Virus record (IMG/VR): IMGVR_UViG_3300047195_000664
Span: 1 to 62,403 of that record
Reading direction: 5' to 3' (one strand)
Origin: a virus
Taxonomy: Duplodnaviria; Caudoviricetes
Length of the DNA: 62,403 nucleotides
How positions within the stretch are numbered: the first letter of the stretch is position 1; every line of letters starts with the position of its first letter. The translations under genes were made by a program, and so were the position numbers. The notes under the pieces were generated by a model. The model did no database searches and was not told the origin of the DNA. It saw only the letters and a list, made by a program, of their open reading frames with translations. Of the stretch, positions 7,522 through 39,936 are shown piece after piece.

Positions 7522-9039
7522 ATGCCAGTAGGTACCTTAGGTAAAAAACCTGGAATAATTATTATTCCACTTAAGCAATACACTCCTGTTAAACAGGTCA
7601 TTATTAATGGTGTTGACGTAAGCGAAGATGCTATTTCTTCAAGGGTTGATTTAGGTGTAACTACTGCTACTAGTGCAGTTAATATTATATTGGATAATAA
7701 TGATGGTAAATATACGAAAGAATTTGCCATAGGAAATATAATTAAATGTTATGCTGATTTTACTAGTGGCACAACAAAAATTTTTGAAGGGCGCTTATAT
7801 ACGCCAACTTATAATTTAGATTTGGCTAGGGGCCATATATTTAATATATTGGGTAAATGTTATGGCGCTGATACACTAAATATTATAGTTACAAAACAAT
7901 ATACTACTGATACAGCTATCTCCACGATATTTATTGAGTTACTAGATGAGTATATGCGTGTTGCTCCTTTTAATCATAGTTCAGATAATAGCAATATTGC
8001 AACAATCTCAACTACAGCAAAGCCAACATGGAATGGGGTCTCCTTATGGAAATGTTTTCAAGATTTAGTATTAGCTACACAAGATACGTATCATTTTTAT
8101 TGTGACTTTGATAAAATATGGCATTTATTCGAAAAAGGTACAAGAATAGATTCAACAGAAGCAATAATATATGGAGACAATTTGGTTGGTCTTGGTGTAA
8201 CAGATGGTGACTTAAATAATTTATTTAATAAAGAAATTGTATATGGACAAGAAATAGAAACTATTCCAATAATGAAAGTAAAAGAAGATACTAGTAACCA
8301 AACATTATATGGTGTGATAAGGGCAAAAGTCATAACAGACAATAATTTAACTACCACAGACGAACTTAATATAAAAGCAATAAATTTATTAGCAGTTGAT
8401 ACCACTCTCGAACAAAGTGGAAGCGCCGAGGTGTATGGATTACCATTATTGAAACCCGGGTATCAAATTCTTATTGTAGATATGTATTGTAATGTGTCTA
8501 CGATGAAAGATATAATTAATGTTACTCACACCATTGATAGTGGTGGTTTTAGAACACATGTTCAATTCGAGGAAGAAGAAAAGGGTGTAGTCCAACTATT
8601 TAAGAGTAGTATACAAAGAGAACAAGAGAGCGCAAACATTAAGAATAAATATGCAATGGAGAATTCACATATTGTTGCTTTTGATGGAGATAATATTGCA
8701 GATTACTCTACTGACTTTAGTGATACTACTGTTTGGGATAGTAATCTAATGTTATCATTAGGTAAATCAACAGGATATATTATTACAAACATGCACACAG
8801 CTGATAAAAATGTAACCGCGTTTACAGTAATAGTTGTTGGCTCTAACTTAGCATCAGACGAAGGAGAATCTTGGGTCGATGTAGAAGTATCTTGTGATAA
8901 TGGCGCAGTGTGGGATGACGTTCTTACAATTAATGATACACTACATACACCTTCTTCTTCAGGGAAAAAAATTAAAATCAAGATAACAATAACAAGTCTA
9001 ACTACTAAAATACGGGCAATAGGGGTTTTATATAAGTAA
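7522..9039 (+). CDS. Baseplate hub / tail-tip protein
   Basis: ILDNNDG...IFEG, FYCDFDKIWH, GLPLLKPG...VTHTI pattern of gp27/Tal-like hubs. Confidence 0.65.
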   Translation: MPVGTLGKKPGIIIIPLKQYTPVKQVIINGVDVSEDAISSRVDLGVTTATSAVNIILDNNDGKYTKEFAIGNIIKCYADFTSGTTKIFEGRLYTPTYNLDLARGHIFNILGKCYGADTLNIIVTKQYTTDTAISTIFIELLDEYMRVAPFNHSSDNSNIATISTTAKPTWNGVSLWKCFQDLVLATQDTYHFYCDFDKIWHLFEKGTRIDSTEAIIYGDNLVGLGVTDGDLNNLFNKEIVYGQEIETIPIMKVKEDTSNQTLYGVIRAKVITDNNLTTTDELNIKAINLLAVDTTLEQSGSAEVYGLPLLKPGYQILIVDMYCNVSTMKDIINVTHTIDSGGFRTHVQFEEEEKGVVQLFKSSIQREQESANIKNKYAMENSHIVAFDGDNIADYSTDFSDTTVWDSNLMLSLGKSTGYIITNMHTADKNVTAFTVIVVGSNLASDEGESWVDVEVSCDNGAVWDDVLTINDTLHTPSSSGKKIKIKITITSLTTKIRAIGVLYK

Positions 9040-9398: not shown

Positions 9399-9441
9399 AA
9401 AAGCGAAAGAAGAATGAAGAAGAGCTTTTGTTTTTTTTATT
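9399..9441 (+). terminator. Terminator (AAAAGC/GCTTTT stem plus T-rich tract) at the convergence of the two arms
   Basis: Long oligo-T after the last plus-strand gene. Confidence 0.55.
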
Positions 9442-9630
9442 TCTTATTTTTAGGAACTCCTTTGCTTTGTGGGAACTCCTTTAAATGGGTTACCTATTTA
9501 AAGGATTGCCTTTATTTCAAAAGAGTTGCTTATAACAAGAAGATATTAACTACAAAATTCATTACTCTTCCACATAAACTCTCGGTAGTCTTAATAGAGT
9601 TAAGTTAAAGCACCTCTTAATTTTCCCTAT

Positions 9631-15607: not shown

Positions 15608-15744
15608 ATATCCACAATTTCTTCTTCTATTTCTTTTGGTAGGTCGTGATGAAGATATGCATCTTCCCCATACGATGCTTCTCCTTTCGCTATTCTTTCT
15701 CGCATCTTCCCTACGAACTCATCTAATTTTTTTATGTCTTTCAT
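15535..15744 (-). CDS. All-alpha NTP pyrophosphohydrolase-like protein (MazG-type)
   Basis: R...G...YG...EIEEEIVD acidic helix pattern. Confidence 0.45.
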   Translation of the reverse strand: MKDIKKLDEFVGKMRERIAKGEASYGEDAYLHHDLPKEIEEEIVDMCVWSFLMWNKLQKLKKKIESVKE

Positions 15745-16265
15745 AGTAACAACGACCTCATAAATTCTTCTTTGGGAAACTTGCCCGGCTCTGATACTAA
15801 GAATACACCTCTTACTTCATTTGTTACCATATCTGAAGTTTTCTTTTTTACTCCTCTGCAAGCCATGCACTGATGTTTTCCAATTAATACTACCATCGAA
15901 CCTTTAGGTTTTATTTTTTCTTCGAGCTCCTCTATAATTTGATATGCCATAACTTCTTGTGTATTTGGTCTTGCCGCATATTTATCAACAAGTCTCGCTA
16001 ACTTGCTTGCGCCTGCTCGCCATTCATTTGGTATATAACCCACATGTGCTACACCTTCAAAAGGTAATAAATGATGTGAGCAAAGACTTGTAAATTCTAT
16101 ATTTCTTAATATCACCATTCCTGTTGTCGTTGGATTTTTATTTGGAAATATTGTAAAGTTGAAGTCATGCCTTTTCTTTAGCTCTTCATAAAATCTTTGT
16201 ACGCGCCCCGGGGTATTAGCTAATTCTTCTTCATTAAATAATTCATCTGGTAACTCAATTTTCAT
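15741..16265 (-). CDS. folE: GTP cyclohydrolase I
   Basis: TPGRV, SLCSHHLLPF, SKLARL, HQCMACRGV. Confidence 0.95.
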   Translation of the reverse strand: MKIELPDELFNEEELANTPGRVQRFYEELKKRHDFNFTIFPNKNPTTTGMVILRNIEFTSLCSHHLLPFEGVAHVGYIPNEWRAGASKLARLVDKYAARPNTQEVMAYQIIEELEEKIKPKGSMVVLIGKHQCMACRGVKKKTSDMVTNEVRGVFLVSEPGKFPKEEFMRSLLL

Positions 16266-16983
16266 TCTGCATGACCTCCTTCAAAATTTTAATATTCCTT
16301 AGAGCGAGCTCTTTATTAATAACCCTTTCGAAATAGTTTTTGGGTCTTTTGACGTCCTCGAAATTTTCTTTATCAATTTCAATATTTAACATAGCTAACT
16401 TCCAAGGTATTGTGCTATCTACAGATTGTCCATATCTGGCTAATGCTGGTAAATCTCGCCAATCGTCTAATGCTAAAAAGTGTATTGGTTTTTGTGTGTA
16501 GGGCGACATTAATCTCATAAACTCTACTCTTTTCATTTTTGTCCATCTTGATAACATTCTATCAGGAACACACACAATATCTATTTTCTCCATTATATTT
16601 AGTTCTTTGAAAGCGATTGCCGCATGTGTAAAATTCTTTCCTACAACAACTGCCATTATTTTCATATCTTCAGGAACAACTTCACACATTTTATCTAATA
16701 ACTTATAATAGTCTAATGCGTCATGAGAGTCGTAAAATGTATCAGGTAATATTATATAATTAGCTCTAATCTCTTTAGCTTTATCTATGAGTTCATCTAT
16801 TGTAGGGGTTTTTTGCAACTCAAAGAACCCGTTATCTAATATCTTAGTTGCGTTTCTTAGTTGTTTAATCTTTTTAGTATATTCATTATCACCAATTAAA
16901 TGTGATAAAAATAAGTGTGTATCGCTCATCCATAACTCTCTGTCGTTAATGTGTGCTGTCGGAAGAATGTTTACAAATTTCAT
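16255..16983 (-). CDS. TGT-like TIM-barrel protein, putative DNA 7-deazaguanine transglycosylase (DpdA-like)
   Basis: ILDNGFFE, ILPD, IHFLA, SVDST motifs; lies between queC and folE. Confidence 0.6.
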   Translation of the reverse strand: MKFVNILPTAHINDRELWMSDTHLFLSHLIGDNEYTKKIKQLRNATKILDNGFFELQKTPTIDELIDKAKEIRANYIILPDTFYDSHDALDYYKLLDKMCEVVPEDMKIMAVVVGKNFTHAAIAFKELNIMEKIDIVCVPDRMLSRWTKMKRVEFMRLMSPYTQKPIHFLALDDWRDLPALARYGQSVDSTIPWKLAMLNIEIDKENFEDVKRPKNYFERVINKELALRNIKILKEVMQNEN

Positions 16984-16987
16984 ATCA

Positions 16988-17275
16988 TCACCTCGCTAAT
17001 GTTATGTTTTGATTCCTTCCTCTCCATTCTTCCATTGTGTCTCCTTTTTTTAATATCTCCTTCGGAAAATCTGCTCCTCTTATAACAAGTGCTATTATAA
17101 GTTCTGCAATTACACATGGTTCACCAAGGCAATTGTTAGGATTTTTATACACCGCTTTTAAACATCCTTTGAGTGACATCCAATCGGTTATCTCGCTCTC
17201 CTTAACCTTTATTTCCGCGATACATCTATTAAATGGAATTCCTTCCCATTTATTTAGTGTATTGATTGAGCACAT
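16988..17275 (-). CDS. Hypothetical protein
   Basis: Fills the operon between queC and the dpdA-like gene. Confidence 0.5.
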   Translation of the reverse strand: MCSINTLNKWEGIPFNRCIAEIKVKESEITDWMSLKGCLKAVYKNPNNCLGEPCVIAELIIALVIRGADFPKEILKKGDTMEEWRGRNQNITLAR

Positions 17276-17951
17276 CTACCGCTTCCTCCCATTCTTTACC
17301 TGTTAGAGCAGGGTCTTTTAAATCATTTTTTACAAAAGCTTCTGTTCTTTCTATACATGTTCCGCATTTTAAACAAGGTCTTCCGTTTTGTGGATTATAA
17401 CAACTCCAAGTTAACTCAAGGGGTGCGTTTAAGTTTTTTCCTAGTTGTACAACATCCGCTTTCGTTAAACTTATAAATGGTGCTCTAAGAATAACTGCTC
17501 CTTCGGTACTTTTAAATATAGCTTCTTTCATTGCCGCTACAAACTCTGGGCGGCAATCTGGGTATATAGTTTTGTCATTGGTGTGTGCCGCATAATCTAC
17601 ATATTTGGCACCAATTGTAACTGCCCATCCTGTTGCTAATGACAACATAATCATATTCCTGTTGGGAACGATAGTAGACTTCTGAGATTCGTCCGAATAA
17701 TGTCCTTCAGGTATGGATTCATCTCCTGATAATGAACCTTTTCGTATTAGTTCATTGATAGACTTTATGTTCACAACTTTGTGATTTATCCCTAGTTTTT
17801 TTGCAATCTTTTTTGCTCTCGTAATTTCTATATCGTGACGTTGTCCATAGTTAAATGTTAACGCATTTACTTCATATCCTGTTTTTATTAATTGACAAAC
17901 CATAGTCACGGAGTCAATACCTCCTGACATTATTGCTACAACTTTACCCAT
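17250..17951 (-). CDS. queC: 7-cyano-7-deazaguanine synthase
   Basis: SGGIDS, FNYGQRH, VPNRNMIML, YPDCRPEF, TWSCY, CLKCGTC. Confidence 0.97.
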   Translation of the reverse strand: MGKVVAIMSGGIDSVTMVCQLIKTGYEVNALTFNYGQRHDIEITRAKKIAKKLGINHKVVNIKSINELIRKGSLSGDESIPEGHYSDESQKSTIVPNRNMIMLSLATGWAVTIGAKYVDYAAHTNDKTIYPDCRPEFVAAMKEAIFKSTEGAVILRAPFISLTKADVVQLGKNLNAPLELTWSCYNPQNGRPCLKCGTCIERTEAFVKNDLKDPALTGKEWEEAVDVLNQYTK

Positions 17952-18008
17952 TTGCCCACCTCTTATTTTTTTAAAATTAGGGAAAATTAAGGGATGTTTT
18001 TAATATCA

Positions 18009-18138
18009 CACATATTTCATATGTGTTCATATTGTTGTTTGCGTGAAAGTTATGGAACTCTCGGCTCCTTTGGAAGATTTTTGATTGGATAATCTAATAT
18101 AAAAACCTTCCAAAAACTCCTGCAACTCCTAACTATCA
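18009..18138 (-). ncRNA. Intergenic structured RNA (95-nt rod plus small hairpin) between queD and queC
   Basis: UUUUUGGAAGGUUUUU/AAAAAUCUUCCAAAGG and outer helices with G-U pairs on the minus strand. Confidence 0.55.
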
Positions 18139-18153
18139 TTTCTCCATTACTTT

Positions 18154-18633
18154 TTAAACTTCCGCAAAGGCGTTCTTATTTTCCCACACTTTAATTGATA
18201 CTGTGTATCCTGGTACTATACTTCTCTTTAGTTCTGAACGTATATATTCTGCTAATATTTCTGCTGTAGTGTTTTCTATTGGTAGCATAGCGAATTCTTC
18301 TAGTACACCAATCACTTCTAAATCTCCGCATACTCTTTTTGCAGATACAGCAATACTATTATCATTATTAGCTACCACAATATTTTTATTTTTCATAGGT
18401 ATAAGTATCTTATGGTCTAACTCTTTGAGAATATTACTCAATAAACTCTTAATTTGTGAAAAGTCAACTACTATTCCATTAAAGCTTAACGAGCCTTCTA
18501 TTGTGACGTCTACATCCCAATTATGTCCGTGTAGATGTGAACACTTTTCATGCCAAGGCAAAAAATGCGTTGCACTAAAACTTTCTCCTATTCTAGATAC
18601 TTTAACTTTATCAGTTGTTCCCATATCAAACAC
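18154..18633 (-). CDS. queD: 6-carboxy-5,6,7,8-tetrahydropterin synthase
   Basis: FSATHFL, CSHLHGHNW, VDF, LDHK, TTAE, VWE. Confidence 0.95.
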   Translation of the reverse strand: MFDMGTTDKVKVSRIGESFSATHFLPWHEKCSHLHGHNWDVDVTIEGSLSFNGIVVDFSQIKSLLSNILKELDHKILIPMKNKNIVVANNDNSIAVSAKRVCGDLEVIGVLEEFAMLPIENTTAEILAEYIRSELKRSIVPGYTVSIKVWENKNAFAEV

Positions 18634-24437: not shown

Positions 24438-24487
24438 TTCCCCCTGCTTGTTTAAATACTTTTTAATGTTGTAAGATATATTTTTGA
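24438..24487 (-). promoter_or_regulatory. Promoter: operator TGTAA-GATATATT-TT (24470-24487), 11 bp, TATTTAAA, GCAGGGG
   Basis: Repeated architecture. Confidence 0.75.
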
Positions 24488-26070
24488 AGATATGTGTTCA
24501 AAGCGCGATGTAAATCAAATACCTCACCGAGTTTCTCTTTGGCTTTCATGGTCTCAAAAATATATTGTTCAAACCCATTTGCTACCATATTAAATACTTT
24601 TAGTTGCTCTTTTGAAGTTACCCTGTAACATCTATCAATACGTTGGCTCAAGCGCGCCGGATTCCAAGTCATATCAAAATTGATAATTGTCGACACAAAT
24701 GGCATATCGACACCATAATTAAACGCGTCTGTTGCTACCAAAAACTTAAATTCGTCTCTGAATTTCGTAATAATTTCTTCTTTATTTTTAGTTTTTCCCG
24801 ACCCTATTATTACATCTTTACCAAGTTGTTGCGCGATGAAAGGTGTCATTTTTCTATATTTAGTAAAGATTACAACCTTTCCTCCATCTAATTCATCTAT
24901 GATGTGTTGCAAATCGCTTAGTTTAGCCGACTCTGACTTAGTAACTTCTATATTAACAAGACTTTTAGCATTTGAAAGTTTTATTAAATCCGTCGAATCT
25001 TCTACCATTTGTAATAATGTGAATTTTTGTATCGCTGTTCCTGTGTTATTATAATAATCTTTTTCAATTGCCTTCTCAATTTGCGCTCTTACCTCAAGCT
25101 GATATGGTGTTAAATCAATTAATCTATCATATATAACTTTTGGCGGGAAGTGTGCAACATCCTGCCTTTTGCGCCTAATTGCAATTGTTAAAAAATTCTT
25201 CATAAAGTCGTCCACATTCTTATAGTTCAATAGTATCTTAAATCCAAACTGCATTCCAAAGTTACAATATTTTGTGTAAAAGTCTGCTTTTGACATCCAA
25301 CCTGGCTGTATAATATTTCCTAACGTAAACGCATCTTCTAATTTGTTTTCTATTGGTGTACCAGTTAATCCATACAATAGACTCGGAGATAATTGTTGTA
25401 CATACTTTGTTCGTTTAGCTTTTGGATTTTTTAGGTATGTCATCTCATCCAATAATATTATTTGCCATTTTGTTAGGTTATAAATATCCCAAAAGTCCCT
25501 TAATATTTGTTCGTAATTAATAATAAATACTTGAGGCTTCTTCTCATATAGAAACTTTCTTTCTTCTGGGTACCCTTTTATTATTACCGCGTCACGGTTA
25601 AACCATTTTTTAATTTCTCGTTGCCATTGCCATTTTATTGAGGAAGGACAACATACACATACTCTCTCTACTGAACCTTGCCTTAAAAAATAATCAGCAA
25701 TCGCAAACGTCTCTAGGGTTTTGCCCAAACCACATTCATCGGTTACTAATAATTTTTTTTGCATGATTCCTCTTACAGCGCACGTAATCTGATAATCATA
25801 TAAGAAAGAGTACTTCTCTTTAATATACTTTGTCAACAATATATTCGCTTGAAGCACTTCTCTTGCTTGATTTCTAACTTCAAGAAGAACACACGAAATA
25901 TCAAAGCCCAACACTTGTAACTTGTAAAGGTTATTCGTTGTATATGGTATTTCCCAATATTTAAATAATGGATTCCACTTCCTGCCCACAATTTGTTTTA
26001 TTTCATATATTAATTGTGGGTCGTAATCAAAAGCAACAACTAGTTTATCCTCTTGTAGGTGCACGCCCAT
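24463..26070 (-). CDS. SNF2-family helicase with N-terminal HARP-like domain
   Basis: DECGLGKT, INYE, LDE, LTGTPIEN, WNPARLSQRIDR. Confidence 0.9.
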   Translation of the reverse strand: MGVHLQEDKLVVAFDYDPQLIYEIKQIVGRKWNPLFKYWEIPYTTNNLYKLQVLGFDISCVLLEVRNQAREVLQANILLTKYIKEKYSFLYDYQITCAVRGIMQKKLLVTDECGLGKTLETFAIADYFLRQGSVERVCVCCPSSIKWQWQREIKKWFNRDAVIIKGYPEERKFLYEKKPQVFIINYEQILRDFWDIYNLTKWQIILLDEMTYLKNPKAKRTKYVQQLSPSLLYGLTGTPIENKLEDAFTLGNIIQPGWMSKADFYTKYCNFGMQFGFKILLNYKNVDDFMKNFLTIAIRRKRQDVAHFPPKVIYDRLIDLTPYQLEVRAQIEKAIEKDYYNNTGTAIQKFTLLQMVEDSTDLIKLSNAKSLVNIEVTKSESAKLSDLQHIIDELDGGKVVIFTKYRKMTPFIAQQLGKDVIIGSGKTKNKEEIITKFRDEFKFLVATDAFNYGVDMPFVSTIINFDMTWNPARLSQRIDRCYRVTSKEQLKVFNMVANGFEQYIFETMKAKEKLGEVFDLHRALNTYLQKYILQH

Positions 26071-26583: not shown

Positions 26584-27243
26584 TTAAACACCTCTCTTCT
26601 TACCCCATAACCAAACATGCAATCTCATCGTAAAACGCCAATTTCTTTCTTTACAAATTTCTACAATCCATTTTGCGTTTCTTTCCATCTTGTCTTCTGT
26701 TTTACCTTCTGGCATTAACATTATTTTGTTTTGGACAAGATGATATTTCTCTATCAGGGCGTCTATTTCATATATATCGCTTTTTTGAGACACCACAAAC
26801 TTAAAGAATGCGTGTCTTCTCGGTGCGTTAAAATAACTATAGTGTACTATCTTTTTAACATTCTTCGAGTTTGATAATTTAGGTGACACGTTCCATAAAT
26901 CTACACCATTCGATAAGTTATAGTTGTGTGGTTCTATTGTTCCGTTTGTTTCTACTTCTACATAATACCCCGCTAATTTTAATTGGCCAACAAGTGAACT
27001 TACCTCTTCTGCTTGTAATAGAGGCTCGCCGCCCGTAATTACTACATGCTTGCATGGATATTTCATTATTTCAACAAGTAGCTCGCCTATAGTCATTGTA
27101 ACTCCAGCTTTATATTCGTTTGCATATTTAGTGTCGCAGAAACTACAGTTCAGATTACATCCTGCTAAGCGTAAAAATACAGCTGGCTTTCCAGCATTAA
27201 TGCCTTCGCCTTGCACACTATAAAATATCTCGCTTACTTTCAT
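26584..27243 (-). CDS. queE: 7-carboxy-7-deazaguanine synthase (radical SAM)
   Basis: EIFYSVQGEG, CNLNCSFCDT, TGGEP, ETNG, SPK. Confidence 0.96.
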   Translation of the reverse strand: MKVSEIFYSVQGEGINAGKPAVFLRLAGCNLNCSFCDTKYANEYKAGVTMTIGELLVEIMKYPCKHVVITGGEPLLQAEEVSSLVGQLKLAGYYVEVETNGTIEPHNYNLSNGVDLWNVSPKLSNSKNVKKIVHYSYFNAPRRHAFFKFVVSQKSDIYEIDALIEKYHLVQNKIMLMPEGKTEDKMERNAKWIVEICKERNWRFTMRLHVWLWGKKRGV

Positions 27244-27676
27244 CTTCCTTCACCTCGGGCTTTTTGATTATACTCAAAAATTTAATATTATTTTCAGTTC
27301 TCTCTTCTTCTAATATTGTTCCTATTAGATAATTAATTAGTCGTAGTGTTCTGTTTTGTCCAAGAGGCCACTCTCCGTGCTTTCTTTTTTCCATTAGCGT
27401 TTGTATTAATTCTTGTTGTTTAATTTTACGGTCACCAATAATATTAATAATGATGTTGGCGCCTTCTTCACTTTGTCCTCTTAGAACTGGATTGGTGCGT
27501 ACTGCCCTTTGTATGTTTTCACACACTTCAATAATGGATTTACATCTACCAATTGTCGCTTGACAAACACCAAAAATCTTATTAGCGTCAAATTGTTCTA
27601 GGTCTACTACTACATCTGATAAATTCATTACATCTTCTTTTAGCTTTTTTAACTCATCCATAGCCATTATTATCAC
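27218..27676 (-). CDS. Protein with C-terminal wHTH homologous to the MCM-like ATPase C-terminus
   Basis: GEWPLGQNRTLRLI vs GKWDLGFNRTLQLI. Confidence 0.65.
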   Translation of the reverse strand: MIIMAMDELKKLKEDVMNLSDVVVDLEQFDANKIFGVCQATIGRCKSIIEVCENIQRAVRTNPVLRGQSEEGANIIINIIGDRKIKQQELIQTLMEKRKHGEWPLGQNRTLRLINYLIGTILEEERTENNIKFLSIIKKPEVKEDESKRDIL

Positions 27677-31530: not shown

Positions 31531-31854
31531 CTACAATAATCGGGTTTGTTTCCTCGCCCTTGGTAGTCTTACGAAGGTCTTATAAAACCTTATTTTCAGG
31601 GCGTCGTAATCTTTATCATGTTCTTTTGGTATGCTGTCTTCGAAATCATCATGTATCGCGTTTAAATCGCCGTTAGTACCTAATACATACTTTAATGTAC
31701 AAATTTCTGTTGCCATTATAATTCTTATAAGGTCACGTTCCATATTATCGTTTCTAACGGCGAGATTTTCTGGTTTGCCAAATACTCGTGCGAAGACTTC
31801 TTTTGATAATCTTAAGCCTTCTTCAATTTCTGCTTGTGGGCGCATTTTTATCAC
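31531..31854 (-). CDS. Hypothetical protein
   Basis: Operon packing; possible frameshifted C-terminus. Confidence 0.5.
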   Translation of the reverse strand: MIKMRPQAEIEEGLRLSKEVFARVFGKPENLAVRNDNMERDLIRIIMATEICTLKYVLGTNGDLNAIHDDFEDSIPKEHDKDYDALKIRFYKTFVRLPRARKQTRLL

Positions 31855-32165
31855 TTAATTCTATGTTCAAACGGCTCACGCATGGTTAGTGCGCATGTTT
31901 GGTTTATAAAGTTTTGTGTAGTGTCCCTAAATATTTGTGCTTGTGACTCTAAATCTAATAATAAATTCACAATTTCTCCTTTTGTCATTTTTATGATAAA
32001 TTCTTCTTCAGTAGGTACTACTCTTTTAATTTCCATATTATCGCCCCTTTTCAAATTCCTTGCCACAAAAGCCACAAAATATAATACCATGACTTTTAAT
32101 AACCTCTCCTTTAAACCCGTCGCCACAGTAATGAATTCTTGGTTGGATGCGTATTTTTTTCTTTT

Positions 32166-32306
32166 TCATAATATTACCTCTTTTGGTATTCTTGCAGGGA
32201 CTACCTTTGTGATATTGCATGTGTCGCAACATCTTCCTTTTGCTATTGGTTCTGCGTTGTTACCATAACCATTGTAATTCTTTTTGCAAATTACACATTT
32301 TTTCAT
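32166..32306 (-). CDS. 46-aa Cys-rich viral Zn-finger protein (not in ORF track)
   Basis: CVICK...GYGNNAEP...GRCCDTCN...VVPAR. Confidence 0.65.
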   Translation of the reverse strand: MKKCVICKKNYNGYGNNAEPIAKGRCCDTCNITKVVPARIPKEVIL

Positions 32307-33389
32307 TTTAATTCACTTCTACCTATACTTATAGGAATATAAGTCTTTTAAAAAAACATATGCCCATCATAATATAATCTAATCATCCCATTCTTTTGCT
32401 CTATCACCCAAGCCTGTAATGAATCGTGCACCACAACTTGTGCATTTAAAAAGGTCGCCGTTAAGTTTGCCGTGGAATTTAATTGAGATAACCTTGATTC
32501 CAGTCTCTAAGCAAATAACATTAGGACTTCCGCATTCGCTACATTGGATATGAACCATTGTTAATCACTCAAACCCATCTCTTTTCTTAATTCATATTTT
32601 TCGTGCCGTCTTTTTATCTCTCTTGATACCATAGATTTGACAACATTAATACCGAAACCATTAAATGCTGTGTTAAAAAATTCCCAGCGTAAAATAATAT
32701 CTAGCGCCTTCTCTACTTCTTCTATTTTCTTTCTATCCATATTAGTTATCTCTTTCTCCCAATCACCTAATGTTATTGTTGCCATAATAATTACCCTTTT
32801 AATATTAGTGGAATACATTCGCCACAATAATAATTGGCTTGATAGTCTTTGTAATAGTTTGGATAATGTAATATTGTCCCGCATTTAGAGCATCTTCTTT
32901 TGCTATGCGTATTCTTCCGCGCCTCTTCGTTCATGGCTTCGATGCGTGCTTTTATTTGTTCTTGTGTTGGTAACATAATAATCATTCCGTAATACCTTGC
33001 TCCTTTAAAAACTTACCAAGACAATCTCTACACGATTTACATTGTGTCACATGAGCTATGGTAAGTATATATCTCGTTGAATCATCTTCATTTAGTTCTA
33101 TTTTCATAATACTACACCTTCTCTATACTTATAACCTTTATTCCAGTGTCGCTACCGTAGGCTTCTTGCATTAAATCGATTAAGCTTCCAGTTCCTACAA
33201 AACTATGGAATGCGCTGTCTTCGTCGATTTCTATTGTTACGGTTACTATTTCTTTCATAATTAATCACCTTGGTTTTCTATTATCATAATTTGTTCCTTT
33301 TTCACCTTCTATACATTCTTCACACAGCTTTCCGCTGCGTATTGGAACTCCGCATCTTTTACATTTTGGCATATTCTTTACCTCCTTTT

Positions 33390-33547
33390 GAGCTATTGGA
33401 TATAGCAGGACAACGAACTATCCGCTTCGTTTGCAAGACGAATCTTTGCGGACAATACCACCAACTCAAAATCGCTGATGACATCGTTTGCGGCGCCCAT
33501 TTAGAAACACAATTTCGTCACCGTTGTCTTTCTGCTCCCAATAACCC
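33390..33547 (-). ncRNA. BHB-closed structured RNA (predicted 127-nt excised RNA) directly after the origin-proximal promoter
   Basis: GGGUUAUUGGG-A-GCAG-AAA-GACAACGG ... UCGUUGUC-CUGC-UAU-A-UCCAAUAGCUC. Confidence 0.78.
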
Positions 33548-33569
33548 GATTGGTATGTTTAATTAACTA

Positions 33570-33623
33570 TATTATCCTTGCGCTACTTTAAATACTTTTA
33601 TATTGTATAATATATAGATTTTA
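33570..33623 (-). promoter_or_regulatory. Promoter: operator (33606-33623), 11 bp, TATTTAAAGTAGCGCAAGG
   Basis: 15-nt identity with the promoter at 36919. Confidence 0.75.
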
Positions 33624-34038
33624 AAAACGAATGAGTTTTTTAAGAGCATCATTTTAAGCGTTGTTTAAGAGATACGCAAGGAAAGGTTAAAAAATCATGA
33701 GTTTTTACATCTTTTTAAAATATAGCTTGAAATATAGGGTGGTAGTGGAGGAAAGGTATATAGGGACGGACCGACTAATAGACACAGGAAGAGGGTCAGG
33801 GACGAAAGGGAAAAGATATAATATGTAATATAATCATGTATATATATATATTATTCTTATTATCTTTCTCTCTTTCCCCGTCGTCCTCTACCTCCGTCCC
33901 TGGCTCCGTTCACCACCCTATTTATTAAGCGATATATTTAAAAAGATGTAAAATCCTATCGGTTTTCAGCATACGATATGGAAGCTCTTAAACAACTCTT
34001 AAAATGATGAAATCAAAAAACTCATAAGAAATTAAAAT
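33618..34038. repeat. ~420-bp imperfect palindrome with AT-rich centre; putative replication origin
   Basis: Symmetric blocks about centre 33828; GGGACG motifs; (TA)n core. Confidence 0.8.
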
Positions 34039-34100
34039 GCTTAAAAAAGGATAAAGCGCCCGTCTTCAAATCACGGGCAAAAAATAATATGTTCTCTCTT

Positions 34101-34352
34101 CTACTTGGTTTTCACAACAAGCATGTAGAATTTCTCGCCGTTAACAACACGGCTTTCTAACTTCTTTTGCCTGTACTCAAGGTAGTTGAGTATATTCTTA
34201 ATTTTCTCAACTCCTGCGAATGCTGTCAGTTCCTTCAAGCTGTAACCGGTATCAGGTTTCATGTTTGTTATAATCTTTGGGCCCACACCAGAACCGCCTG
34301 CGATTCTTGCTCTCTTTGCTCCTTTTAAGAAGTCGTTTTTGTTTATTGGCAT
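34101..34352 (-). CDS. Small winged-helix protein (paralog family MxIxKxxF)
   Basis: GYSLKELT...ILNYL...KLESR.V...FY wHTH pattern. Confidence 0.7.
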   Translation of the reverse strand: MPINKNDFLKGAKRARIAGGSGVGPKIITNMKPDTGYSLKELTAFAGVEKIKNILNYLEYRQKKLESRVVNGEKFYMLVVKTK

Positions 34353-34451
34353 AATCTTTTCACCTTATCGCTCTTTGTCCCATCATATGAAGGTCAGGGC
34401 TCAAACATAATATCTCCGTCAGCTTGCGCCAACGATGATTATGATTTATAA

Positions 34452-34505
34452 TATTATCCCCTGCACACTTTATATATGTTTTTATGTTACAACCTATATG
34501 TTTAA
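34452..34505 (-). promoter_or_regulatory. Promoter: operator (34488-34505), 11 bp, TATATAAA, GCAGGGG
   Basis: Repeated architecture. Confidence 0.72.
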
Positions 34506-34688
34506 GGATATAAATAAAAAAAGCAAAATCCTGTCGTCGCGTCGTTAGTCATTATTTCTTTTTTGCGCCGCAAACTAATTTGCCCAATCCGTATGCTCCC
34601 ATTAATAGGAGGACTAAAACTAATACACAAGCTCCTAAGTCTCCTACTAATCCGAGCAACTTGGCTAATGTGGACATTAGTTCCTCTA

Positions 34689-34898
34689 TCATAGTTTTTC
34701 ACCTCCATTACTCTTTAGTACTCTCATTACTCTCGTGGCACGATAGTAACTGACATTAAATTGTTCCATTATTAATTTTGTCGTGAACTTAATATATGTT
34801 CTCCAGTTACTTAATGTCTCGAGAATTGTTTCTTCGCTTACTGGTTGCTTCGGTATGTCAAGCGAGCCAATCATGAATTCATCTTTACTAATTGTCAT
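34689..34898 (-). CDS. Small HTH protein (MTISKDEF paralog; FtsK-gamma-like HTH)
   Basis: LIMEQFNVSYYRATRVM. Confidence 0.55.
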   Translation of the reverse strand: MTISKDEFMIGSLDIPKQPVSEETILETLSNWRTYIKFTTKLIMEQFNVSYYRATRVMRVLKSNGGEKL

Positions 34899-34899
34899 A

Positions 34900-35265
34900 T
34901 TACTCGCTCTCCTTAGTCATGTTCGGGTCTATTAATACTCCGCAACCTCTACATCTTCCTGTCTTCGTATCTACTCTACAAGTGTGTCCGCAAAAAACGT
35001 CGCAAATCTTTGGTATTGGTAAATAGTCGCGCATACACACTTCTCCACATTTTTCACATTTATATCTTACCCAAACTCTCTTGTGTAATGATGTGTAGTC
35101 TATTTTGTTACTCAAGCTTAATATGTGGCGCCTTATTATAGTTGTGATTAATTCAAGTTGGCGCCCATCTTGCTCAAATGTTTCGATTGTTCGGGTAGGC
35201 GTGTCTTCTATAAATGCTTGCTTCGCTCCGTCCCACTTAATATTGGTCAAGTCTTCGTCTTCCAT
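34900..35265 (-). CDS. Cys-rich Zn-binding hypothetical protein
   Basis: Multiple CxxC. Confidence 0.55.
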   Translation of the reverse strand: MEDEDLTNIKWDGAKQAFIEDTPTRTIETFEQDGRQLELITTIIRRHILSLSNKIDYTSLHKRVWVRYKCEKCGEVCMRDYLPIPKICDVFCGHTCRVDTKTGRCRGCGVLIDPNMTKESE

Positions 35266-35595
35266 CTTTTCTTACCTCCATTTTATTCAAGAGACTAAAA
35301 TTGATAACACAAAACGTCTCCGATTCTTTTCAATAATAATTTACCGTCAACAACTAATCGTTCTATTTCATGCTTGTTGTTAATTTCGGTAAATTCAGTG
35401 ATTCCTTTTTCATTTTTCCAACTTACTACGATTTTCATAATGTCACCCTTTTTGGAGTATATTTATTCATGAAACACTCTTCGCATAGGCCTTTGTCTAA
35501 GTTCGCTTGTGTTCCACAATCTTTACAAGTTCCTATTTTGCCATAGGAAAGGTCACATAATACTTTACAGCCAGTTGGTGTTTCTCTCATTTGTG

Positions 35596-35931
35596 TCATT
35601 CTTCATCACCCTTATATCCAAACTTTCTTGCTAATTCTAATCTTTGTTTTGCTCCTTCTTCTAAGTCTTTTGGGTCTATTTTATCTAAGTCTCCTCCCCA
35701 ATTCATTCCATCAGCAAACTCATCTTCTATTTTCTTTTCATCAATAAGTCTTGTTTGTGTGATGATAATATATCTTTTCATGAACTCGTCTAATTCACTA
35801 CCATCTATTCCATAGTTACTTTTGGCGAGTTCTCTTATTTTCTCTTTTACTTCTTCTTCTTTTTCTCTTTTTAAAAAACCAATGTTCTCTCTACAACTTG
35901 GGCTAAAATCTCCCACTATAAATACTTTCAT
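35596..35931 (-). CDS. Hypothetical protein
   Basis: AGGTGA RBS; first gene after the promoter. Confidence 0.65.
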   Translation of the reverse strand: MKVFIVGDFSPSCRENIGFLKREKEEEVKEKIRELAKSNYGIDGSELDEFMKRYIIITQTRLIDEKKIEDEFADGMNWGGDLDKIDPKDLEEGAKQRLELARKFGYKGDEE

Positions 35932-35969
35932 CTTTTGTCACCTTTTTTCGTTTTATATAGTAAACCCGA

Positions 35970-36025
35970 TATTATTTCCCTTTTGCCTATAATATACTTT
36001 TAGGTGTTGGGATATATAGGTTACA
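35970..36025 (-). promoter_or_regulatory. Promoter: operator (36008-36025), 11 bp, TATA-like box
   Basis: TGGGA-TATATAGG-TTACA. Confidence 0.6.
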
Positions 36026-36238
36026 TCCGTGAGATCGCGCCTCACTTCAATTTTGTTCTCGTAAACTAATACGCGTTTCGTTTATTTGTCTCTCAAAACT
36101 AATATGTTTCGGTTATCGTATGTTTACTTTCTTTCTCCCTATGTTTATAGTCTCTTTCCATAGGGAGCCATAGGGCCTTTGGTTTCTCCTTATCTTATGT
36201 CGCCTCTAACCTATATCTTAGAGGCGCTAGGTGGGACC

Positions 36239-36285
36239 AAAAAAAAAGGTTGGAAGATATATCTTACATCAACTATCTTCCAACT
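36239..36285 (-). terminator. Hairpin plus T9 terminator after the wHTH gene; overlaps an operator copy
   Basis: GTTGGAAGATA/TATCTTCCAAC stem followed by a T-run on the minus strand. Confidence 0.65.
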
Positions 36286-36291
36286 TATATT

Positions 36292-36543
36292 TTACAATCT
36301 CATGAAATAAGGGACATTATTCACACTTCTTTTTTCTATCTTGCTATCTCTCATTAGATTGTTTAAAGCTTGTTTGATTTTCTTTATTCCATTTTCTTTT
36401 TGTGCAAGTCCATTTGTGTTTTTTGTTATCTCTTCAAAGTTTACTGCTTTGTCTTTTGGGATTGCATATAAAATCAATCCTCTAAAACTTGTTCCTTTCA
36501 CATGCTTGCTTCCTTTCATGAACTCTTCTTTCGTTATTGACAT
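36292..36543 (-). CDS. Small winged-helix protein (MSITKEEF), first gene of the minus arm; candidate regulator
   Basis: AVNFEEI...IKQALNNL...KIEKR.V...YF; paralog of 34101-34352. Confidence 0.7.
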   Translation of the reverse strand: MSITKEEFMKGSKHVKGTSFRGLILYAIPKDKAVNFEEITKNTNGLAQKENGIKKIKQALNNLMRDSKIEKRSVNNVPYFMRL

Positions 36544-36674
36544 ATCTATTTCACCTTATCCATTTATAAACATCTTTCTCCTATCCTATGATTTCGAACA
36601 TCTATCCAACAACATAGATGTCATATGTTATTAGACATTTCGACAACACAAATGAACATTCATTCACTTGCAAG

Positions 36675-36946
36675 TATATATTCCCCCGCAACCTATTTAA
36701 AGCCATGGGGGCCTGTCGTGCCTATAAACTATATCTTCCAAGACCGCAAAGTACATATAGGGGGCCGGCAACATGGAGCTTATAACCTATAGCTTGTGTA
36801 CTGGTGATTCTGAAAGCGGGGTTACAGGCTCTATATTTAACCAAGCCATGTCAAAAGACCAAAGTATCGAAAATAGACCACTTATATCCTCTAAGATATA
36901 TTTTAAACTTACTAAACATATTTAAAGTAGCGCGGGGAAATATATA
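36675..36946. promoter_or_regulatory. Divergent promoter/switch region with operator copies at 36723, 36781 and 36890
   Basis: Back-to-back TTTAAA-N-GCGGGG promoters; strand switch of the genome. Confidence 0.75.
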
Positions 36947-36958
36947 GAATCCTTACTG

Positions 36959-37729
36959 GTGTATAACATGAAAAAATGGTTATTAATAGTTCTTTTTGGG
37001 TTTATTCTATCTCTTGGAAGTATTGGTTTCGCGTACTACCCTTCATGCAACTCACTTTGTGAATATTATTCATATGAATCAGGCACATGTTTATATTCTT
37101 GTTGTTCAAGTCAGGTTAATATAGGGCACGATAGTTGCCTTGGTGGCAAGTATTGTTGTTGTACGCCGTTTCCGCCCACAACTACTACCAGCACAACTAC
37201 GACGACAACAACTACAGAGCCGCCCACAACAACCACGACAACTGTAGAAACAACTACAACCACCGAGGAAACGACAACTACCACAACAACAACCATGCCT
37301 GAAGAGACGACTACTACAATAGAAACAACAACAACAACCATTCCTGAGGAAACTACTACAACAACGATAGAAGAAGTAACTACAACTACTGCCCCTTCTG
37401 AAAGCGGGTATGCGCCTTATAGTTTTCATTGTGTTAATTTTGGTGGATATTGTACAGAAGATTGGGACTGCTGTAACGCGCTAAAATGTGTAAATAGAAT
37501 TTGTGGCGCGGCACCTACTACAACTGTTACAACAACTATCGAAGTTACGACGACACTTGAAGTTACTACAACAACCATCGAAGACATAACAACAGAAGAA
37601 ACAATAATAGAAAACGAAGATGAAGAACCACCTGAAGAAGATAATTCATTATTATACATTGGTGCTGGAGTTATCAGCGCCGGTGCTATTGGTACTGGCA
37701 TATATTACAAGAAGAAAAAGAAATCATAA
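36959..37729 (+). CDS. Secreted, C-terminally anchored Cys-rich / Thr-rich mucin-like membrane protein
   Basis: Signal peptide, two Cys-rich knots, poly-Thr tracts, TM helix plus KKKKK. Confidence 0.85.
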   Translation: MYNMKKWLLIVLFGFILSLGSIGFAYYPSCNSLCEYYSYESGTCLYSCCSSQVNIGHDSCLGGKYCCCTPFPPTTTTSTTTTTTTTEPPTTTTTTVETTTTTEETTTTTTTTMPEETTTTIETTTTTIPEETTTTTIEEVTTTTAPSESGYAPYSFHCVNFGGYCTEDWDCCNALKCVNRICGAAPTTTVTTTIEVTTTLEVTTTTIEDITTEETIIENEDEEPPEEDNSLLYIGAGVISAGAIGTGIYYKKKKKS

Positions 37730-37781: not shown

Positions 37782-37988
37782 ATGGATAAGGAAGGAAAGT
37801 TATATTTGGTCATCTACTATGATGACTTAGAAATGAAGCGCACAAAACATTTGCGGCTAATTGCTCGCGAGGGCACTTTGTTAAAATTCTTTAACGAGCA
37901 GACAGGGCTCGAAGAATGGATTCATGAAAACTCTATAAGGAGAATGCAGGAAATAAAGGAAGATGGTGATAAGGATGGCAGACGATGA
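37782..37988 (+). CDS. Small beta-barrel (Sm/SH3-like) protein
   Basis: GGAGG RBS; beta-rich pattern ending WIHENSIRRM. Confidence 0.55.
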   Translation: MDKEGKLYLVIYYDDLEMKRTKHLRLIAREGTLLKFFNEQTGLEEWIHENSIRRMQEIKEDGDKDGRR

Positions 37989-39288
37989 AAATGAAGATAT
38001 GGGGCCGATGGATAATAATGTGGAGCAAACTGACGACAAAATGTTATTAATGGACAAACTTTGGAAAGTATGGAAAGACTATATTGATTATTATGTAGTA
38101 GAGAACCGTGAATTAAAAACAATTTTGTTTCACACAGTATTAGGTGCAATTTTGCGATATAAAGGATACTCATATATTGAGTCGGCGAAGCAGAAGTCAA
38201 TGCGACAACACATATTTATGGTGCAAGATTCTGGAACGGGCAAAACACAATTAATGACAGCTCTTACAGATTTGATATCGTATTTAGGAATACCTTGTCG
38301 AAGAACAATAAAAGATAATGAGGCGGCACTTACAGGTACGGTTTATCGTGATGTTGGTTCTGGTAAAACAATAAAAAGAAAAGGTGCTTTAGCGGATTTA
38401 TACTCGTTGTGCTGGGATGAAGGGAGTGTATTGCTCAAGTCTTCGGCATACATGGATATTGTAACAGATGTTATGCAAGGTGTTATGGATGAACCGGGTA
38501 TTGTTTCAAAAGGTATGAGGCTGGGGACGGTTGAGTACCCTTCGCCAGCAACAATTATTGCAGGGTCATACATGTTCGATGCTTTCGAAACGACGCTTGT
38601 AACCAAGGGATTCTTACAAAGGATGTTTATTTTCTTTAAGATTTTTAGCGAACGTGAGAAAAGGAACATAAGAATTGGTGTAAATTTGCTCAAGAATGCA
38701 CAAAATGTTGAGAAGATTGAGAGAATCAAAGAAGAATTTCGCAAATTAGTTGATAAAATTCCTATTTTAGTGGACAAAAATATTGTTTTTAATATGGATG
38801 ACGTCAAAAGATTCGACAATGTGTTAGAAGACGTATACAAAAAATACATCGAATATCAATTTGTGGGCGAGAAACAGAAAGTTTTGGAAACTTTTTTTAA
38901 CAGACTACATACAATTATTGATAAAGTAGCGGCACAGCGCGCGATAATTAATGGAAAAACTGAGGTAGAGTTCGAAGACATGGAGTTCGGTTTAGAAATC
39001 AGTAAGTATCACCTAACTTCGCTACTAGAGTTATTCGATTACCTATACTCGGGCAAAATATTGACGTATAAAGATGAGCGCGAACAGATAATCGCGGCAA
39101 AAGTAAAGGCAAATGGTGGGGAAATCTTGCAAGTTGAGCTAATAAATCAGCTTTTAGAGCTGAAAAAGGTAGGAAAATGGGATTTAGGATTCAACAGGAC
39201 ACTGCAGCTCATTAGAAATATGATTTCTGAGCATAAGGTTGCGCAGACGACCAGTGACAAGAAACAGAAGATTATTTTATTGAAGTAG
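37963..39288 (+). CDS. mcm: MCM-like AAA+ ATPase (short N-terminus, C-terminal wHTH)
   Basis: QDSGTGKT, AALTG, LCWDE, QGVMD, GFLQR. Confidence 0.65.
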   Translation: MVIRMADDENEDMGPMDNNVEQTDDKMLLMDKLWKVWKDYIDYYVVENRELKTILFHTVLGAILRYKGYSYIESAKQKSMRQHIFMVQDSGTGKTQLMTALTDLISYLGIPCRRTIKDNEAALTGTVYRDVGSGKTIKRKGALADLYSLCWDEGSVLLKSSAYMDIVTDVMQGVMDEPGIVSKGMRLGTVEYPSPATIIAGSYMFDAFETTLVTKGFLQRMFIFFKIFSEREKRNIRIGVNLLKNAQNVEKIERIKEEFRKLVDKIPILVDKNIVFNMDDVKRFDNVLEDVYKKYIEYQFVGEKQKVLETFFNRLHTIIDKVAAQRAIINGKTEVEFEDMEFGLEISKYHLTSLLELFDYLYSGKILTYKDEREQIIAAKVKANGGEILQVELINQLLELKKVGKWDLGFNRTLQLIRNMISEHKVAQTTSDKKQKIILLK

Positions 39289-39354: not shown

Positions 39355-39936
39355 ATGTTGCCTGAAATAGAAAAGAAATTAGAATGGGACTATAATGTTC
39401 CACGTTGCTATGCTTTTAAGATAAAAGAGGACGAAAATTGTTCTATTTGTCGAAATGCTATCGTTTCAAAATGGTTATCTCCTTTTCTCATATCAGATAT
39501 ACCATACGATAAGATAATTTCCATTTTGAAAAATGAGTTTAATTTTGATGTCACTGAAAATATTCTCACAGACCATAAAAACCACATTGAAGCTACTTAC
39601 ACAGGGGATGATGCAATAAAGAAAAAAGCAATGGAGGATATTGCTACAATCGAAGCTGATTTGGTCGGCAAAACGAACGAAGAGATGGTTATTGAGTCGG
39701 CGATTCGTTCTCTTTATGCCAGGAAATTATTTTATGAAAAAACAGGTACGTATGATAGAGAGTATCGTGAGATTTTAGCGGAACTTAATAAATGGGTAAC
39801 TTTAAAGGCTAAAATGAAAGATAAGATTGTTGACCAAACAGTGCGCGTGTCGCTCAGTGACATTATAAATTTAAATATTGGTGGTAAAAATGAGCGACCA
39901 AATGACGACACTACAGGAACTAAAAGCAGCAATTAA
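39355..39936 (+). CDS. Putative terminase small subunit
   Basis: CSIC...HKNH plus helical region, immediately upstream of terL. Confidence 0.55.
   Translation: MLPEIEKKLEWDYNVPRCYAFKIKEDENCSICRNAIVSKWLSPFLISDIPYDKIISILKNEFNFDVTENILTDHKNHIEATYTGDDAIKKKAMEDIATIEADLVGKTNEEMVIESAIRSLYARKLFYEKTGTYDREYREILAELNKWVTLKAKMKDKIVDQTVRVSLSDIINLNIGGKNERPNDDTTGTKSSN

Follow-up and report, generated by a model that had tools for sequence, protein, structure and literature searches.

Where would a tailed virus that carries its own replication genes begin to copy its DNA? The question is raised by a non-coding quasi-palindrome at positions 33618–34038 of IMG/VR virus record IMGVR_UViG_3300047195_000664, which we analysed as the complete record (62,403 bp, G+C ~33%, classed as linear and estimated to be 82% complete; hereafter the window). 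An earlier note, made from the same letters, had proposed a bidirectional origin with a layout like that of archaeal origin recognition boxes (ORB) and a DNA unwinding element (DUE). From sequence comparisons and structure predictions, we put the probability that the palindrome is the virus's own bidirectional DNA replication origin at about one half. We favour this reading because mirrored, register-keeping arrays surround the most easily melted point of the genome, because the element is single-copy and kept in place and build, not in sequence, and because it is accompanied by purifying selection in one close pair of relatives, by an adjoining gene for a putative DNA-binding protein and by the virus's own helicase and replisome.

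A repeat search of the window against its own reverse complement delimited the palindrome, which is composed as follows.

33618–34038: quasi-palindrome, 421 nt, non-coding, with its centre at 33828
33618–33719, plus strand: left outer arm, containing ATTTTAA, ATGAGTTTTTT, CATCATTTTAAG-N-GTTGTTTAAGAG and TTTTACATCTTTTTAAA, with T5–T6 runs read towards the centre
33734–33810, plus strand: left inner tract, purine-rich (0.70–0.80 purine per 30 nt), beginning with ATAGGGTGGT and containing two GGGACG
33811–33870: A/T core, 87% A+T, candidate unwinding element
33871–33921: right inner tract, pyrimidine-rich on the plus strand (purine 0.13–0.23), with a minus-strand GGGACG and, at its end, the mirror copy of ATAGGGTGGT
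33937–34038, minus strand: right outer arm, mirror copy of the left arm
33618–33624 and 34032–34038: mirror pair ATTTTAA
33631–33641 and 34015–34025: mirror pair ATGAGTTTTTT
33647–33671 and 33985–34009: mirror pair CATCATTTTAAG-N-GTTGTTTAAGAG
33703–33719 and 33937–33953: mirror pair TTTTACATCTTTTTAAA
33734–33743 and 33912–33921: mirror pair ATAGGGTGGT, with a 1-nt offset

The blocks that the earlier note had described as mirrored about position 33828 were all found at their positions. In mirror register, the outer arms match at 74 of 102 positions, as compared with a mean of 27.3 (standard deviation 4.7, maximum 50) at 61,083 other positions of the window (z 9.9). An inverted-repeat search, a kind of check that the note had suggested, returned the same arms, 33618–33719 and 33937–34038 (102 nt, 73% complementary), and alignment of the sequence with its reverse complement gave E-values of 1e-26 and, over the 421 nt, 3e-34. 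The spacers at 33672–33702 and 33954–33984 do share a length of 31 nt and differ in sequence (13 of 31 positions identical), and the GGGACG motifs do face the A/T core: three of the eight copies in the window lie inside the palindrome, at 33763(+), 33799(+) and 33895(−). Counted per 25 nt from the outer end inward, the in-register matches number 19, 21, 13 and 19, then 9, 5, 5 and 7; the mirror symmetry is thus strong only over the outer ~100 nt of each arm and falls to chance level further in, where the inner ~110 nt of each side show a loose likeness that needs gaps, through which a gapped alignment still connects both sides. T-runs of the left arm lie at 33636, 33702 and 33712. Internal direct repeats are found in the left arm (D4 and D14) and in the right arm (D1). 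The single open reading frame (ORF) of at least 40 aa inside the palindrome, 33697–33828 (43 aa), has an ATG that is missing from the mirror arm.

The element is single-copy. The 25-nt CATCATTTTAAG-N-GTTGTTTAAGAG block matches the window at up to three mismatches in only two places, the mirror sites (0 of 100 shuffles), and the palindrome blocks occur nowhere else in the window. An exact search with the main block gave 0 matches in viral_contigs and 0 in genome_contigs, and blastn of 33400–34100 against a phage collection gave none.

To find relatives, alignment-based searches alone succeeded; exact-block searches and searches with single proteins (helicase, terminase) returned none. The 441-aa ATPase encoded to the right of the palindrome (described below) has 38 homologues in a large protein set; P0002–P0005 (56–57% identity) are relatives represented by proteins alone. 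An alignment of 24 of these retrieved 5 viral and 21 metagenomic loci, all of which were run against their own reverse complements by blastn; a scan of genome_contigs with the ATPase alignment found no relative. Palindromes of 372–593 nt (E 3e-23 to 2e-71) were present in five distinct relatives, L002, L004, L018, L008 and L012, after L022 (identical hit, same-length contig) had been merged with L004 and L014 (identical hits) with L003. They lie upstream of the ATPase gene by 3.7, 5.4, 4.7, 2.1 and 2.6 kb, respectively, the distance in the window being 3.9 kb. Ten distinct closer relatives (ATPase 42–55% identical) offered at least 2 kb of upstream sequence; five of them have a large palindrome, one (L003) has a palindrome of 166 nt and four have none. 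Three distant loci (ATPase 29–32% identity) had no palindrome. The helicases of the palindrome-bearing relatives are 43–55% identical to that of the window, and the position of the palindrome is kept while its sequence has turned over: the palindromes cannot be aligned between viruses, and what the window and the five relatives have in common is a build. This consists of T-rich repeated words (TTTTA type) in the outer arms, a mirror register of ~50–175 nt, a looser inner part and an A/T-rich centre, with the inward strands purine-rich in the window, L002 and L008. T-runs in the five distinct palindromes read inward 31 times and outward 14 times, a possible transcription block that is too weak to build on. 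An exact search with the L008 block gave 0 matches, and one with the L002 block returned its own contig and an unrelated phage contig (L029), which we dismissed as chance.

One pair of relatives, L004 and L018, is close enough (92–97% identical over aligned segments) for selection to be assessed. Their palindromes differ at 14 of 593 nt and at none of the central 272 nt, whereas the two 300-nt flanks show 28 and 29 differences (57/600). By Fisher's test, the p-values for the palindrome and its centre are 1e-7 and 3e-10 against the flanks, and 0.0025 and 3e-6 against the other aligned segments (355/7148). By this comparison, the palindrome is under purifying selection in the pair and kept better than its coding flanks. 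In L004 (4066–4200 versus 4465–4600), a repeated word resembles the other words of its own arm more closely than its mirror partner (left arm …TTTTAATGG, right arm …TTTACACGG), and in L018 one left-arm word, at 2728–2745, has the right-arm form; this pattern suggests exchange or conversion between repeats.

Recurrence and selection bear on whether the palindrome is a mobile or accidental element, namely a miniature inverted-repeat transposable element (MITE), a palindrome-associated transposable element or a functionless chance inverted duplication. Its size and terminal inverted repeats resemble those of MITEs, and a haloarchaeal tailed virus is reported to carry a 489-bp palindrome-associated element (bioRxiv 10.1101/2022.10.18.512658). 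But the palindrome is present once in the window, where an element of this kind is expected in several copies, and its diagnostic block is absent from viral_contigs and genome_contigs; it keeps the same relative position in six viruses despite the turnover of its sequence, and it is under purifying selection in the L004/L018 pair. We regard this explanation as close to refuted.

Could the palindrome instead encode RNA? Convergent purine-rich small RNAs might be made after the TATA-like blocks, or the whole might be one long imperfect hairpin RNA. The 421 nt do fold as a hairpin (RNA z −12.7 for the plus and −11.1 for the minus strand), the centre shows no difference between L004 and L018, and purine-rich tracts follow TATA-like boxes in the window, L002 and L008. 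But the inverted repeat itself accounts for the fold, which is equally strong as DNA (z −13.2). The inner 168 nt alone fold weakly (z −3.0 and −1.9), as does the inner part of L004 (−2.5/−1.3), and neither strand is clearly favoured; the arm spacers are unpaired and nevertheless keep their length, which a stem would not require. Rfam search of 33300–34200 gave no match at threshold, only hits of up to 27.6 bits against cut-offs of 47–135, microRNA-precursor-like as for any hairpin, and over the whole window tRNA-Met was the sole match at the gathering score. Given this weak inner fold and spacers that keep their length rather than their pairing, a hairpin RNA is unlikely, and we consider RNA genes of either kind improbable. 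These results support the view, already taken in the earlier note, that the palindrome is a DNA-level array of mirrored, in-register blocks and not a selected RNA hairpin.

The centre of this array is the least stable point of the viral DNA. When duplex stability was expressed as summed nearest-neighbour stacking energies, the least stable 40-mer (33815–33854, rank 1 of 62,363) and the least stable 60-mer (33811–33870, rank 1 of 62,343) of the window both fell at the symmetry centre; the second least stable 40-mer is the promoter-like motif at the left edge. The least stable 40-mer also falls in the palindrome for L004 (21 kb), L018 (17 kb) and L012 (4.9 kb), while regions less stable than the palindrome number 4 in 21 kb of L002 and 7 in 8.6 kb of L008. 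In all six viruses, the stability minimum inside the palindrome lies within ~40 bp of the palindrome centre. The A/T-rich, easily unwound region expected of an archaeal origin is therefore present.

The palindrome sits in a gap of ~700 bp between leftward genes of the same strand. The following features flank it or provide its candidate partners.

33582–33595, minus strand: leftward promoter-like TATA motif RTATTTAAASWAGC, 22 nt beyond the left arm
34043–34084, minus strand: terminator-like stop, two T6 runs around a GCCCGT/ACGGGC hairpin just 3′ of the winged-helix gene, not called by the consensus scan
34101–34352, minus strand: winged-helix protein gene, 83 aa, separated at its 3′ end from the palindrome by 63 nt, candidate arm binder
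36292–36543, minus strand: winged-helix paralogue, 83 aa, with BLASTP matches at 748–1005 of L008 (E 5e-16) and 4257–4559 of L002 (E 1e-11)
37963–39288, plus strand: MCM-fold AAA+ ATPase, 441 aa, with a C-terminal winged-helix-like end, candidate replicative helicase

With the T6–hairpin–T6 stop on its right and the promoter-like motif on its left, the palindrome looks bracketed by a stop and a restart of leftward transcription and would thus be set apart from the flanking transcription units. The motif RTATTTAAASWAGC has exactly three matches in the window, 24446–24459(−), 33582–33595(−) and 36918–36931(+), all of them intergenic and oriented with their own gene block. A G-rich and an A/T-rich stretch come after each copy, and the three sites are likely to be the strongest promoters, perhaps early ones. 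The TACTTTAAATACTT of the window motif also stands to the left of the palindrome in L002. A consensus hairpin-terminator scan of the locus gave 0 calls against 1.3 expected.

The 83-aa product of the adjoining gene was modelled by AlphaFold 2 with the helix (H) and strand (E) order H-H-E-H-H-E-E (pLDDT 78), and its top Foldseek matches were Sso10a-2 and winged helices of the ArsR/MarR type (E ~0.01, TMq 0.62). The window has two or three paralogues of this family, and members are found in all relatives examined. In four of the six viruses (window, L002, L008 and L012), the right side of the palindrome has a winged-helix gene within 400 nt; in L004 and L018, the distance is 1.1–1.3 kb, and the ORF that adjoins the left arm is a different small one. 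Pfam gave nothing for the five ORFs flanking the palindrome and only sub-threshold winged-helix hits for the family together with the neighbouring ORFs of the relatives; PHROGs gave nothing for three ORFs of the family. In L002, two copies of GTTTAGTGACAAAACTAAT and five ATGGGCG lie between the palindrome and the winged-helix gene (6330–6480) and form an additional repeat array there.

The AlphaFold 2 model of the 441-aa ATPase (pLDDT 87.7) closes with a helix-strand-helix-helix-strand-strand unit that resembles a winged helix, and its top Foldseek matches in the PDB were all MCM subunits (E 5e-13, TMq 0.53). By sequence, Pfam MCM fell below its cut-off, PHROGs matched the helicase (C-terminal) end of primase-helicases, and a PDB sequence search with the helicase profile gave nothing useful; in a structure atlas, its neighbours were viral clusters, with MCM clusters among the rows. 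The ORF at 27218–27676 may be a stand-alone copy of the winged-helix end of this helicase. L015 and L027 proved to be one 66,963-bp metagenome contig with two diverged MCM-fold ATPases, 49% and 32% identical to that of the window; that virus therefore carries two ATPase copies, and no large palindrome was present within the examined sequence of the contig.

Leftward genes run from ~36.5 kb to 9.6 kb, and rightward genes from 36.96 kb to the end and over 1–9 kb. The leftward block encodes a family B DNA polymerase (PolB), an AAA+ clamp loader, a clamp-like protein, RNase H, ERCC4 and PD-(D/E)XK nucleases and, by PHROG matches, a primase-like protein and an SNF2-type helicase (24463–26070); the rightward block opens with the 441-aa ATPase and continues with terminase and structural genes. 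PolB, clamp loader, clamp-like protein, RNase H, primase-like protein and MCM-fold helicase in one virus imply a dedicated start site. If the palindrome is that site, a sequence-specific protein would bind the mirrored arrays of short T-rich blocks, facing one way on one side of the 40–60-bp A/T core and the opposite way on the other. The adjacent small winged-helix protein and the winged-helix end of the MCM-fold helicase are the candidate binders. Such binding would bend and melt the core, the MCM-fold viral helicase would be loaded there in both directions, and the viral primase-like protein, PolB, clamp and clamp loader would then take over, so that replication would start at the palindrome.

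The nucleases and terminase of the same virus bear on another kind of DNA site: a packaging site (pac/cos), a recombination or resolution site, or a cruciform that the viral ERCC4 or Cas4-like nucleases would recognise. Cruciforms can be extruded by long palindromes that have an A/T centre, the virus encodes ERCC4 and PD-(D/E)XK nucleases, and the palindrome and the terminase genes share a half of the genome. But the distance is 5.3 kb to the ORF just upstream of the terminase (39355–39936) and 5.8 kb to the large terminase gene. Searches with PF00589, PF00239 and PF16684 detected neither a recombinase of the tyrosine or serine type nor a telomere resolvase in the 82%-complete contig, so that the enzyme expected beside an attP or telomere-resolution site is missing from it. 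Three freshwater-sediment metagenome runs, each from a different study (X1–X3), have contigs with near-identical sequence of this virus (window 32500–35500), and one of the runs is probably the source; one X1 contig reads straight through the palindrome with no joints reported, contigs being unable to show ends, and a gap over 33614–33847 in the X2 contigs was not counted as evidence. We hold a site of this kind to be of low probability.

Several observations weigh against an origin at the palindrome. Firstly, TATA-like boxes within the arms keep alive the reading as a transcription control hub. The innermost blocks would then be the TATA boxes of two promoters that face outward or inward, with the small winged-helix regulators binding the remaining blocks as their operators; such a hub would switch a short leftward operon (36.5–34.1 kb) against the long leftward replication operon, and an outward right-arm promoter could also make antisense RNA over the winged-helix gene. 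The right arm contains TATTTAAA, the octamer of the three promoter-like motifs, reading outward; the left arm contains TATTTTAAA, and TATATATAA-like boxes stand at the corresponding arm place in L002 and L012. The 166-nt palindrome of L003 (8027–8192), with mirrored TATTTAAA / TATATAG boxes exactly between divergent genes, looks like paired promoters. The place of the palindrome between two transcription units and the fold neighbours of the 83-aa protein, mostly transcription regulators (ArsR, MarR and HlyU types), also fit a hub. But the flanking genes are co-oriented in all six viruses with a large palindrome, so that the symmetric element of 372–593 nt has no divergent genes to serve. The clear leftward promoter-like motif stands outside the palindrome, the blocks occur at no other intergenic region of the window, and the extreme melting minimum at the exact centre is not something that a hub requires. 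We regard a promoter/operator hub as the main rival because the arms hold TATA-like boxes, because the L003 palindrome is promoter-pair-like and because skew gives no signal; it is possible rather than probable as the sole function, it is compatible with an origin, and the two may coexist. L003 also has a gene of the winged-helix family, on the plus strand at 8549–8812.

Secondly, skew does not place an origin here. The cumulative skew that the earlier note had offered as a check has its GC minimum at ~36–37 kb, where the genes change strand, and passes 33.8 kb without inflection, and the skew of the whole window tracks gene direction. Third-position skews of same-strand genes do differ between the right and the left of the palindrome (GC3 −0.02 versus +0.17, AT3 +0.33 versus +0.18). 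Per gene, the shift begins at ~31.5 kb, ~2 kb to the left of the palindrome, and 12.7% of blocks are as low in GC3; since the onset is displaced and the GC3 value lies within block-to-block scatter, third-position skew does not locate the origin at the palindrome and was rejected as evidence. The small leftward genes at 31531–36543 differ from the remaining leftward genes by a lower GC3 and a higher AT3 skew, for which gene age, expression class or replication may account.

The remaining points on this side concern the proteins, the relatives and the core. As the earlier note had remarked, no Orc1/Cdc6 gene is evident: the best TIGR02928 score on the contig was 12.7 bits (cut-off 181.3) and PF09079 gave none, an absence that we count against the origin. 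No large palindrome was found upstream of the ATPase in L010, L015, L016 and L019, of which L015 offers 8 kb and the other three 2.5–3.1 kb. The centre is more conserved in sequence between L004 and L018 than a mere unwinding element needs. The stability ranks rest on a hand-entered table of stacking energies (SantaLucia 1998) rather than on one supplied by a program, and the T-rich 10–25-nt blocks are likened to ORB arrays by layout rather than by the ORB consensus. What stands of the proposal of a bidirectional origin with an ORB/DUE-like layout is the layout itself, the instability of the core, the recurrence in five relatives and the place beside a winged-helix gene in a genome with an MCM-fold helicase.

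The host domain of the virus was judged from its genes and signals. The best E-values of PolB in the phage collection were with haloarchaeal tailed viruses (2e-59, 4e-51), which also account for 10 of the 13 records matched there by the large terminase. T runs without hairpins lie 3′ of several window genes, and scans for sigma-70-type promoters showed no enrichment (10 versus 10.2 expected and 85 versus 76.9). The closest polymerase and terminase matches, the T runs, the TATA-like motif and the lack of sigma-70 enrichment therefore indicate that the virus is probably an archaeal tailed virus, uncultivated.

Other parts of the contig yielded observations of their own. The divergent intergenic region at 36544–36958 has further TATA-like boxes on the plus strand, each followed by GGGGG/CCCCC, and no large palindrome; these boxes may mark small transcription units or regulator sites. 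A second palindrome of 133 nt (9426–9557; 70.7% self-complementary, E 7e-14) follows a long T-run where the rightward and leftward gene blocks converge; it contains CCTTTAAATGG / CCTATTTAAAGG and may be a bidirectional stop or a terminus-region site. In the leftward block, genes for 7-deazaguanine precursors at 15741–18633 and 26584–27243 (GTP cyclohydrolase I, QueC, PTPS/QueD-like and a QueE-like radical-SAM protein) suggest modified guanines in the viral DNA; a 242-aa ORF among them (16255–16983) had no Pfam match. The 256-aa protein encoded at 36959–37729 combines cysteine-rich modules and long threonine-rich linkers with a signal-like N-terminus and a hydrophobic anchor at its C-terminus; it likewise had no Pfam match.

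A more specific version of the origin reading is tentative and, in our estimate, rather unlikely. The palindrome would belong to a self-contained module that dispenses with Orc1/Cdc6 and consists of a small winged-helix initiator, a truncated MCM-fold helicase and the mirrored array; the inward purine-rich tracts would be zones where purine-rich primer RNAs or R-loops form on pyrimidine templates, to be extended across the core into two leading strands. If so, an uncultivated lineage of archaeal-type tailed viruses would have its first defined replicator; a full-text literature search found no palindromic origin of such a kind described for archaeal tailed viruses. Such a replicator would bear on how virus-encoded MCM-like helicases find a start site without Orc1/Cdc6. 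A compact, conserved, single-copy element with an adjacent candidate binder is a concrete object for tests and possibly a vector origin, and the palindrome is also a marker for this virus group in metagenomes. Were it a promoter hub instead, it would be an ordinary, though unusually symmetric, regulatory region.

How does the palindrome compare with known systems? Divergent archaeal promoter pairs share with it mirror-oriented TATA-like boxes, as at 8027–8192 of L003, but such pairs span ~150 nt, whereas the palindromes span 372–593 nt between co-oriented genes and have extra blocks and inner purine/pyrimidine tracts. In iteron origins (lambda ori, P4 ori/crr), repeated binding sites adjoin an A/T-rich region, and their specificity evolves together with a protein that the replicon encodes; most iterons are direct repeats, often inside or beside the initiator gene, whereas the arrays of the window are mirrored around the core.

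According to one review, repeats flank an A/T-rich region in archaeal origins, next to an initiator gene; the repeats and the gene diverge between replicons, and replicator is paired with initiator, as in Sulfolobus oriC3 beside the winged-helix initiator gene whiP (PMC4010727). The adjoining winged-helix gene of the window matches this pairing. As in archaeal oriC, the palindrome has an easily melted A/T core flanked by inverted repeat arrays, G-rich elements at the inner array ends, an adjoining gene for a putative DNA-binding protein and strong sequence divergence between replicons. Unlike archaeal oriC, it belongs to a tailed virus that has no Orc1/Cdc6 gene, and hence no such initiator next to it, and it is built of two long mirrored arms of ~100–175 nt; unlike WhiP at oriC3, its neighbour is an 83-aa winged helix, adjacent but without demonstrated homology to WhiP/Cdt1.

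The origins oriS and oriL of herpes simplex virus (HSV) have inverted initiator boxes separated by an A/T-rich spacer of critical length, and initiator dimers bend and destabilise the spacer (PMC12543377). The window shares this viral palindromic layout, with inverted boxes and an A/T-rich spacer, and the match is one of layout only, with no sequence or protein homology. HSV uses a few short boxes and the SF2 helicase UL9 as initiator, whereas the window has arms of ~100–175 nt with several blocks each and a candidate MCM-fold helicase. If it is an origin, the palindrome would work in the manner of archaeal oriC or HSV oriS, a likeness of layout rather than membership in either class.

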